Sequence record: KP682392.1
DNA length: 64,000 bases
Direction: 5' to 3' (one strand)
From: Escherichia phage PA52
Every line of letters begins with the position of its first letter. Position 1 is the stretch's first letter. The position numbers are program-made. Below are positions 9,001 to 12,000 of the stretch, piece after piece.

Positions 9001-12000
9001 GCTGGTTTGCGTTTGCATTGTAAGACCACTCGTGATGGGGTTGGCCTGTGTAGTTTGTCGGAGCTAATCGCCTCCTGACTTTGCAGGTTTGCGCGACGAG
9101 CTCTACGGCGAGAAGCTGCGGTGCCTTTAAATTCTGTTTTTCTGGACATAGATTCCTCCCGAATAAACTTTGGCGATGCAATCTCGAAGCTCCTCCTGAG
9201 ACGGTTGCTTCGGCATTGCATCCCACAGCTTATGTGGTTGGGTGATCTGGCTTTTCAGCCACGTAGTCGAGAGTCGACGTTGTTTAAAGAGCCTGCCAGT
9301 CTGTTCCATTTGGCTTCCAGCGTCCTGCTGATGGTTAAATAGTACGATATGTACTTCACTTGGTCAATACAATTTGTTCTAAAACGGGGCGTTTTTTTAC
9401 AACGCTTTGTATTTAATAGTATTGTTTTTTAGCGTGGGTGTATTGCCTCGGCGATGTAAGGAGAGATCAGAATTGCGTTGTTTAGTGAGTTGTATCTATT
9501 TATTTTCCAATAAATACAATTGGTTATGTGTTTTTTTGGGCGAGAGGAAAAGAAAACCCGGCATGGAGGCCGGGTTGATGATTAGCGGTGTGGCCTTGAG
9601 CGATAATGCTCACACACATGTTCAAGATTTCCATGCCTTATCCGTTCATAGGCATTCACATGAACTTCTCGATCGAATTGGTCATTCAAATTGTATGTAG
9701 ACATCTGTGTTTTCTCATATTGGCGGCAGCCCTACAACCGCTTGAAAAAATGTACCAGACGCGCTAAGGTTACATCGCAAATATTGTGTACCTTAACAAG
9801 GGCTCCTTTTGGAGGCTCTGGTTAAACAGCATCAATGTCGGACTGGGGAGTTGGACATTGTGCTGAATGCTTTTGCATTATTGAGGCCGAACGTAAACCT
9901 TCAGAATTGAAGAGATGCGTTCGGCTTCTTCGTTTGTGATATCGTTAGGAATGCCTTTAATCGTTACTGTAACCCCTGATTCAGGTCGAAGAACTACTGG
10001 AAGATCATAGGTATGAAGTGCATTAGCCTTGCCTTCGACTTTTGTTGGTTCGCCAGTCAAATCTTTTTCCTCACTGGATTCTTTGTCAATCGGAGTGTAT
10101 GGGATTTCTTCACCAGACTGGAAAGCTACAAACTTTTTGATTGCACTTTCCATGCGGCTTTTATATGCAGTAATGCTGCTGTCGCTAGGCTTCGGCTCAG
10201 TTGCGTTGATGTATCGCTCGGCAAGCTCATTCACATCAAGCTGAGTAACATCACCCATTTCCTCTTCTTGGACTACCGTTAAGAGGCGAGCGGATGAGTT
10301 TTTTAAATTTCGAGCGGTGGCCTCCTTCATTATGTTCAGCGACATAAGCTCTTCAAGGAAGTCCTTGAATGCCTGCACGCTAACGTTTGACTTTGCCATT
10401 TGCTCTCTCTCTAAGTTATTGACTCAGATCGAGTTTATCCAGGAATTGATTTGCATGCAAGACTCAAGTCTTGAGAATTTCCGTTCAAGATCCACTCTCA
10501 ATAAAAAAGGCCGCACCTCTGCGACCTTTCATCTCCTAAATCTCTTTTCTCTTACCTAAAGAAACAGCAGGCTGGGTCAGCCCTAACAACTTCAAGTGCA
10601 TCGGTCAGAGAAAGCTCCGTGCTATACAGGTGTTATTTCATATCTTTTTGCATCCAATAAATTTTCCATCTGTCCAGAGAGCGGATGCACTTGATTCTTG
10701 TTGATGGCAGGACGTTTTTTCACCTGCCTCACCCTGCCATACAGGACGCTGCTCACCGATATCTATCGTCCGGTCATTGATGTTATAGACAATATCCAGA
10801 TCATTACGGATATACTCAGATGGCCTTATGCTTTCAATGAATAGATGAACTTCTTTTTGACCGCTTGATACTCATGGCCATTAAACTCCATCTATCCTCT
10901 TTACCCAAACGTCTCTTCAGGCCATTGGCTGGCGATAACTTTCCCCACAACGGAACAACTCTCATTGCATGGGATCATTGGATATTGCGGGTTTAGTGGT
11001 TGTAGAAACACCTGACCGCTATCCCTGATCAGTTTCTTGAAGGTAAATTCATCACCACCAAGTCTGGCTATGCAGAAATCGCCGGGCTCAACAGCTTGCT
11101 CAGGGTCAACCAGAATTAACATCCCGTCAGGAAAACTAGGTTTGGAACCTGTTGGTGCGGTCATTGAGTTACCTTCAACCTCAAGCCAGAATGCAGAGTC
11201 ACTGGCTTTTTTGGTTGTGCTTACCAATCTCTCCGCATCACCTTTGGTAAAGGTTCTGAGTTCTGGAGAGAACATCCCAGCCTGAACATGAGAAAAAACA
11301 GGGTACTCATATTGTTTTTTAACTGGGGCCGATGAGTATTCGCCAACAGGTGAAAATGTCCCGTCGTGGTTGAATGATATGTTATCAATACCAAGGTATT
11401 TAAACACCACACCAATATCACTAAGAGATGGATGACGAGATCCGCGCAACCAGTGTCCAATTCCACCCTGCGTCATACCTAGCTCTTCGGCTAACTTCTC
11501 TTGAGTTATGCCGAGCTCTTTCATTCTGGATCTAGCCAGTTCATACCATTTCATTTTCATGTCCTTATTATTACGCTCTGTACTGGAACCATCCATGCAC
11601 AATGTGTATTTTTACTTGTATTTGAGAAGTACATATTGTATTTTTTTATTCGTGGTTACTATGGAGGGCATATGAGCAACCTACGAAAATATCGAGAGTC
11701 ACTGAATATCTCTCAAACAACACTTGCTAAGGCAGTTGGATGCACACAGGGAGCTATCGGACATTGGGAATCTGGTCGTCGCTTCCCAGACCTTAAAACA
11801 TGCCGTGCTCTTGTTGCGTGTCTAAACAAGTTAGGCGCAAAAGTAAGTCTTGATGACGTGTTCCCGCCGGAGCACAAAGCCGCTTAATAAGCGGAGCCGC
11901 TCTTTGTAACAACGGACATTCGTCCTACGTCGCTGAAAAGCGAGTCCCAAGATATCTGACCAACTAAGGCCATATGCGTTTCCACGCATACCTTTCAACT

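Follow-up and report, generated by a model that had tools for sequence, protein, structure and literature searches.

Positions 10891 to 10552 on the minus strand of the window, the whole 64,000-nucleotide stretch of Escherichia phage PA52 (record KP682392.1) that was analyzed, appear to hold a multi-hit pseudogene of a small DUF3024 gene found immediately after cI in lambdoid phages; on the strength of the sequence comparisons described below we give this reading a probability of about 0.94. Phage 933W, Salmonella phage SE1, and E. coli Z1323CEC0019 have intact orthologues in the same genomic place, from which the window copy differs by two deletions of 1 nt each, a TAA within the frame, and a weaker Shine-Dalgarno (SD) sequence. 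The features on which the argument rests are as follows.

10901 to 11596, minus strand: cI, the LexA-family repressor gene upstream of the relic, placed from the annotations and the ORF list
10896 to 10900, minus strand: weakened SD sequence AGAGG, which is GGAGG in the intact homologues; the change is shared with the L071 allele discussed below
10552 to 10891, minus strand: the whole DUF3024 relic, from DNA alignment to 933W, SE1, and E. coli Z1323CEC0019
10826 to 10891, minus strand: residual 21-codon ORF MEFNGHEYQAVKKKFIYSLKA*, with codons 1-13 ancestral and the remainder out of frame
10716 to 10853, minus strand: the part of the -1 frame that reads ancestral codons 14 to about 59 (EVHLFIESIRPSEYIRNDLDIVYNINDRTIDIGEQRPVWQGEAGE), from the protein alignment; Pfam matches the fusion no further than residue 59
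10638 to 10640, minus strand: TGA that closes the -1 frame and ends the out-of-frame tail, and is not the ancestral stop

The cI stop codon (10903-10901, minus strand) is followed directly by the AGAGG at 10900-10896 and then by the ATG at 10891, and an ATG with an SD-like sequence is therefore kept 8 nt past the end of cI. An earlier, sequence-only reading had noticed that this ATG opens a frame of just 21 codons, and indeed its stop lies at 10828-10826. The same reading had described a start-less -1 frame of 75 codons running down to 10638 and reachable by a slip at GTC AAA AAG (10861-10853, minus strand). The frame does contain no ATG, GTG, or TTG and does end at that point; its length comes to 77 stop-free sense codons (10871 to 10641), and the hypothetical -1 fusion is 84 rather than 85 residues long (13 + 71). 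Start-less open frames are not unusual in this DNA: across the whole window, 19 of 336 stop-to-stop stretches of at least 70 codons are without a canonical start.

What is the origin of the start-less frame? A tblastn search of phage genomes with the hypothetical fusion returned a "DUF3024 domain-containing protein" encoded directly after cI in 933W and SE1. The intact copies in 933W (NP_049484, ST933Wp24; locus L004, positions 1501-1842) and SE1 (SE1_gp24) are uninterrupted 113-codon ORFs, and the closest intact allele, at 85% DNA identity, is that of E. coli Z1323CEC0019 (WP_024237241), where the gene sits between a cI-like repressor gene and the same 173-aa gene that is found in the window. 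Like the window copy, all three homologues are located directly after cI on the same strand and with the same SD-ATG spacing, and they are 82-86% identical to it across the whole 340 nt. The relic measures 340 nt from the ancestral ATG to the ancestral TAA (10554-10552), as against 342 nt in the intact homologues. The correspondence with Z1323CEC0019 is particularly close at the 3' end, where the last 43 nt of the ORF and the stop codon are identical, the spacer leading to a downstream hairpin shows a single 1-nt gap and a single substitution, and the hairpin is unchanged.

DUF3024 is Pfam family PF11225; it is also phrog_3467, to which no function is assigned, and the PADLOC candidate PDC-S43. 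The Pfam gathering cut-off for PF11225 is 24.9 bits. The -1 fusion scores 28.7 bits and matches profile positions 3-55 of 112 only, whereas a conceptual translation in which all three lesions are repaired scores 80.7 bits over positions 4-111, and the 933W protein scores 106.5 bits. The repaired translation thus passes the cut-off over the full domain, and the window itself holds no intact ORF for it. Residues 60-84 of the fusion match nothing in the protein alignment. A scan of GTDB genomes with the intact protein found only two distant homologues, at 41-45% identity, in Phycisphaerae and Gammaproteobacteria metagenome-assembled genomes. Among solved structures the only matches were to AvrPto, at insignificant E-values of 0.07-0.15, and we rejected it as a structural relative.

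Base-level alignments and an automated lesion count over some 90 loci define three disabling lesions in the window copy, to which the weakened SD is additional.

10854 to 10858, minus strand: lesion 1, an A5 run in which one A has been lost from A6 (delA at nt 34); this is the slip site of the sequence-only reading
10715 to 10720, minus strand: lesion 2, GAAACAAAC changed to GAAAAAAC by a 1-nt loss (delC at nt 176), now an A6 run
10633 to 10635, minus strand: lesion 3, TGG (Trp) changed to TAA at codon 87 by a two-base substitution, so that the ancestral frame reads ...WMQKDMK*HLYSTEL...

Lesion 1 falls at ancestral codons 12-13. Where the window reads GTC AAA AAG AAG, Z1323CEC0019 reads GTC AAA AAA GAA (A6), 933W reads GTA AAA AAA GAA (A7), and SE1 reads GTC AAA AAG GAA (A5G-G). 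Aligning relatives had been suggested beforehand as the way to recognize simple decay, and the outcome is decisive: in Z1323CEC0019, 933W, and SE1 the run is one base longer and the 113-codon ORF is uninterrupted. Since the relatives are intact and longer by that one base, the comparison supports a pseudogene and does not support recoding; the sequence-only reading had held the former to be at least as likely as the latter. It had also attributed the disruption to a one-base indel in the A5 run, which is correct as to the indel and underestimates the extent of the decay. Lesion 2, at codons 58-60, shifts the frame a second time. The -1 frame is consequently the ancestral coding frame for 45 codons only, after which come 26 codons that are open by chance and out of frame (TSCHQQ...GCKKI), while it is the third frame that carries the homology on to the ancestral stop, ending in ...ALEVVRADPACCFFR* exactly as in Z1323CEC0019. 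With two frameshifts, an in-frame TAA, and a weaker SD, a full-length product cannot be made from the window copy. For the same reason a -1 shift at full efficiency would recover no more than the N-terminal half of the protein: residues 1-58, with 26 residues read out of frame behind them.

The pattern of substitutions bears on the age of the decay. Between the window copy and the intact alleles, substitutions at codon positions 1, 2, and 3 of the ancestral frame number 6, 11, and 31, and between the intact pair Z1323CEC0019 and SE1 they number 7, 10, and 31. Because the third-position bias resembles that of the intact pair, most of the divergence is older than the inactivation and the decay is recent; the sequence appears to have evolved as a gene until fairly recently.

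Could the two frames instead be joined by a programmed -1 frameshift at GTC AAA AAG, yielding a functional 84-aa protein? The pair AAA-AAG is intrinsically shift-prone and is the core of the slippery sites of dnaX and of insertion sequences; the head of the locus has an ATG with an SD-like sequence, and the -1 frame, which lacks a start, stays open over 77 codons. In the sites of dnaX and the IS3 family, A AAA AAG is preceded by an SD and followed by a hairpin or pseudoknot. The window shares with them the AAA-AAG core, but not the first A of the heptamer, the internal SD, or the downstream structure. We took as criteria of a programmed frameshift an X XXY YYZ heptamer, a stimulator (an SD-like element some 10-14 nt before the site, a stable hairpin or pseudoknot 5-9 nt after it, or both), a conserved layout, and a coherent product. 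The window heptamer is C-AAA-AAG, on which only the A-site tRNA-Lys re-pairs fully. The 15 nt upstream of the slip site (GAGTATCAAGCGGTC) contain no GGAGG or AGGGGG-like element, and the 83 nt downstream have a folding energy of -12.5 kcal/mol, compared with a mean of -13.0 kcal/mol for shuffled sequences (z = 0.17), with no stimulatory structure. The sequence-only reading had already remarked on the lack of a full heptamer, an upstream SD, and a strong hairpin, and these absences are confirmed. Nor is the two-frame arrangement conserved in the homologues, since 933W, SE1, Z1323CEC0019, and about 60 IMG/VR loci encode a single uninterrupted ORF and the shift is confined to one lesion-bearing lineage. 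The trans-frame product is likewise incoherent: it resembles DUF3024 only to residue 59 (profile position 55 of PF11225), and beyond this it has left the ancestral frame because of the second deletion. Finally, closely related alleles differ in their downstream frame (A6 versus A7 at the second site), and in one strain, E. coli CDC#03-98 (L112, NZ_CP022689.1 48273-49486), an IS1203 copy is inserted within the frame, inside the relic between lesions 1 and 2. The site thus departs from programmed -1 frameshift sites on every criterion compared, namely heptamer, stimulators, conservation of layout, and coherence of product, and we consider a functional recoded protein very unlikely.

Several observations nevertheless stand against a plain pseudogene. 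The SD-like AGAGG and the ATG are kept, and some translation of the 5' end is likely; the shift-prone AAA-AAG may give a trace of -1 product; and the lesion-bearing allele is widespread, being present in 233 of 5,426 complete E. coli genomes. One could imagine, on this basis, that slippage of tRNA-Lys produces a low level of half-DUF3024 (residues 1-58 and the 26-aa tail), and that this product retains or has acquired a function in the lysogen, for example by acting as a truncated or dominant-negative version of a candidate defence protein. We regard such a role as highly improbable.

The distribution of the allele speaks to two further alternatives. The window region is 100% identical to the corresponding region of VT2-Sakai, Stx2 II, 1717, 2851, and the PA-series Stx2a phages, its coordinates match those of phage PA27, and no fewer than 39 independent phage records contain the identical sequence. 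At 99% identity or more the allele is found in 234 records from complete E. coli genomes, and an allele at 80-90% identity is found in a further 158, in which every case sampled is annotated with an intact DUF3024 protein; among the 5,426 complete genomes no allele lies between these two classes. In all 234 records of the first class, site 1 is A5 and site 2 is A6. A synthetic repaired query with A6 at site 1 matched none of these 234 records perfectly, and an A7 query for site 2 had no match in the complete E. coli genomes. In IMG/VR and metagenome contigs, pattern scans of site 1 that allowed 0-2 extra bases after the A5 run looked for an intact A6 with window-type flanks and found A5 in all 22 loci (19 from IMG/VR and 3 from metagenomes).

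According to the first of these alternatives the gene is really intact and the deletions are errors of sequencing or assembly in homopolymers. Single-base homopolymer errors are common on some platforms, and two 933W-type IMG/VR alleles from draft-genome contigs, L069 and L073, could be instances. An error of this kind would have to recur in the at least 39 phage records and in the 234 complete-genome records, which come from many laboratories and platforms, and it would have to account not only for the two deletions but also for lesion 3, in which two bases are substituted. So many independent records refute this explanation, to which we attach a vanishingly small probability. As observations in their own right, L069 and L073 carry independent single-base deletions, the former in the same A-run (around nt 1501-1530, A7 to A6) and the latter at nt 147 of the gene (around nt 1647); these represent either recurrent inactivation at homopolymer hot spots or draft-assembly errors. 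One metagenome contig, L109, was left out of the comparison because of low coverage and obvious T-to-G errors.

The second alternative is that DUF3024 is a phase-variable contingency gene, switched on and off by slippage in its A-runs. Lesions 1 and 2 are both in homopolymer runs. In L069, a 933W-type locus, the run of lesion 1 is A6 where 933W has A7, and nearly identical alleles vary between A6 and A7 at the second site. Against this, A-runs of 5-7 are short for efficient phase switching, the ON version (A6) is absent from the 234 complete-genome records and from the 22 IMG/VR and metagenome loci, and slippage cannot revert the TAA at codon 87. We judge phase variation to be extremely unlikely, and return to the pseudogene.

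The metagenome-derived alleles L071/L104 and L110 share with the window the weak SD as well as lesions 1 and 3, yet their second site is A7, a state seen only in these two metagenome-derived contigs; the near-identical contig L096 has A6. Because near-identical alleles differ in this way, the frame after codon 59 is not conserved even within the lineage. Between the window and L071, two of three substitutions are non-synonymous. Together with the A6/A7 polymorphism at the second site and the IS1203 insertion in CDC#03-98, this is consistent with relaxed selection after inactivation, although about three substitutions in the whole lineage are too few to demonstrate neutral evolution statistically. 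The lesion-bearing allele lies behind at least four different cI 3' ends (L071/L104, L110, L096, and L092) and has therefore been moved by recombination. Recent spread by recombination would explain its wide occurrence. We note that the switch between cI 3' ends occurs just upstream of a conserved motif, TGGCCTGAAGAGACGTTTGGGT, at the end of cI, and this position suggests a recombination junction near the motif.

The history of the pseudogene can be read as follows. From an ancestral ORF of 113 codons downstream of cI, the lineage leading to the window lost one A of the A6 run at codons 12-13 and one base in an A-run at codons 58-60, acquired TAA in place of TGG at Trp87, and suffered a weakening of its SD. 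The 21-codon ORF is what was left of the reading frame after the first deletion, and the start-less -1 frame is the old coding frame for 45 codons extended by the 26 chance-open ones. Ribosomes probably still initiate at the ATG at 10891 and terminate after 21 codons; an occasional spontaneous slip on AAA-AAG would give a half-domain with a nonsense tail, which we expect to be non-functional. The cI transcript would pass through the relic to a hairpin and T6 run at 10526-10503, and the relic would persist as a passenger, being flanked by cI and the 173-aa gene further on.

Retention of the ATG and of the SD-like AGAGG after the cI stop, in an allele fixed in a successful phage lineage, raises the possibility that the relic has been co-opted, so that the 21-aa peptide or the act of translating it matters; ribosomes might, for example, shield the cI transcript from Rho and RNases as far as the terminator at 10526-10503. 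Yet the SD is weaker than in the intact alleles, the 8 out-of-frame codons carry no evidence of selection, the region 3' of the short ORF tolerates an IS insertion, and recent decay accounts equally well for the retention. Co-option is in our estimation very unlikely, and a decaying pseudogene remains the reading we prefer.

Downstream of the relic lie a hairpin and a further gene.

10503 to 10526, minus strand: terminator-like hairpin GGTCGCA-GAGG-TGCGGCC followed by T6, 3' of the relic (-16.1 kcal/mol, z = -3.6)
9878 to 10399, minus strand: the 173-aa ORF (WP_001130059), the next after the relic, belonging to phrog_2602 (function unassigned)

The same hairpin sequence follows the intact gene in Z1323CEC0019, and 933W keeps the stem but not the T-run. 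A consensus terminator scan missed the hairpin at 10503-10526; it is likely to be the intrinsic terminator of the cI unit. The 173-aa ORF has no Pfam or PADLOC match. The slot after cI-DUF3024 is filled by a RuvC-like gene and stk in 933W, by a ParA-like gene in SE1, and by the 173-aa gene in Z1323CEC0019, and from these gene contents it appears to be a variable cargo slot.

Public gene calls inside the relic (10622-10799) conflict, with three annotation pipelines giving three incompatible answers: no gene, and the two ORFs below.

10799 to 10638, minus strand: the 53-aa RefSeq/PGAP CDS with a CTG start, WP_434087148
10622 to 10756: a 44-aa GTG ORF in PA-phage records

Record AP005153 annotates an ORF, B57, on the strand opposite to the relic. 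The existing calls inside the relic are probably spurious, and records of Sakai/Sp5-type Stx phages should carry a DUF3024 pseudogene annotation here. Beyond this correction of the annotation, which is its practical value, the finding is of little importance. It does illustrate that a start-less open frame beside AAA-AAG is no evidence of recoding until homologues have been compared.

What might the intact gene do? The intact homologue matches PDC-S43 from end to end (E = 4e-41). PDC-S43 is a single-gene phage-defence candidate that was proposed computationally; the window copy is inactivated, and this phage is thus without whatever the DUF3024 family does. Prophages carry exclusion genes near cI, such as rexAB of lambda and stk of 933W. 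In 933W-type phages the DUF3024 gene belongs to the cI unit, which is expressed in the lysogen. In Phi24B, expression of the DUF3024 gene changes together with that of cI, the RuvC-like gene, and stk (PMC10789677). By analogy, it is plausible that the intact DUF3024 gene acts as an exclusion gene expressed in the lysogen. The literature we found on DUF3024 and PDC-S43 consists of a table of transcriptome data and an inventory of defence systems, neither of them a study of function. The candidate gene being dead in the Sakai-type Stx2a lineage, this lineage offers a natural null allele for tests of PDC-S43.

Finally, we note that the window does contain real recoding sites elsewhere. Three IS629/IS1203 copies (IS3 family), at about 18692-20001, 25663-26972, and 44058-45367 with their genes on the minus strand, are identical over at least 1126 nt, begin with TGAACCGCCCCGGG, and each encode orfA (108 aa) and orfB (296 aa); RefSeq annotates the same IS element with a programmed -1 frameshift and a pseudoknot. 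The first copy truncates an ORF at 18219 to 18731.
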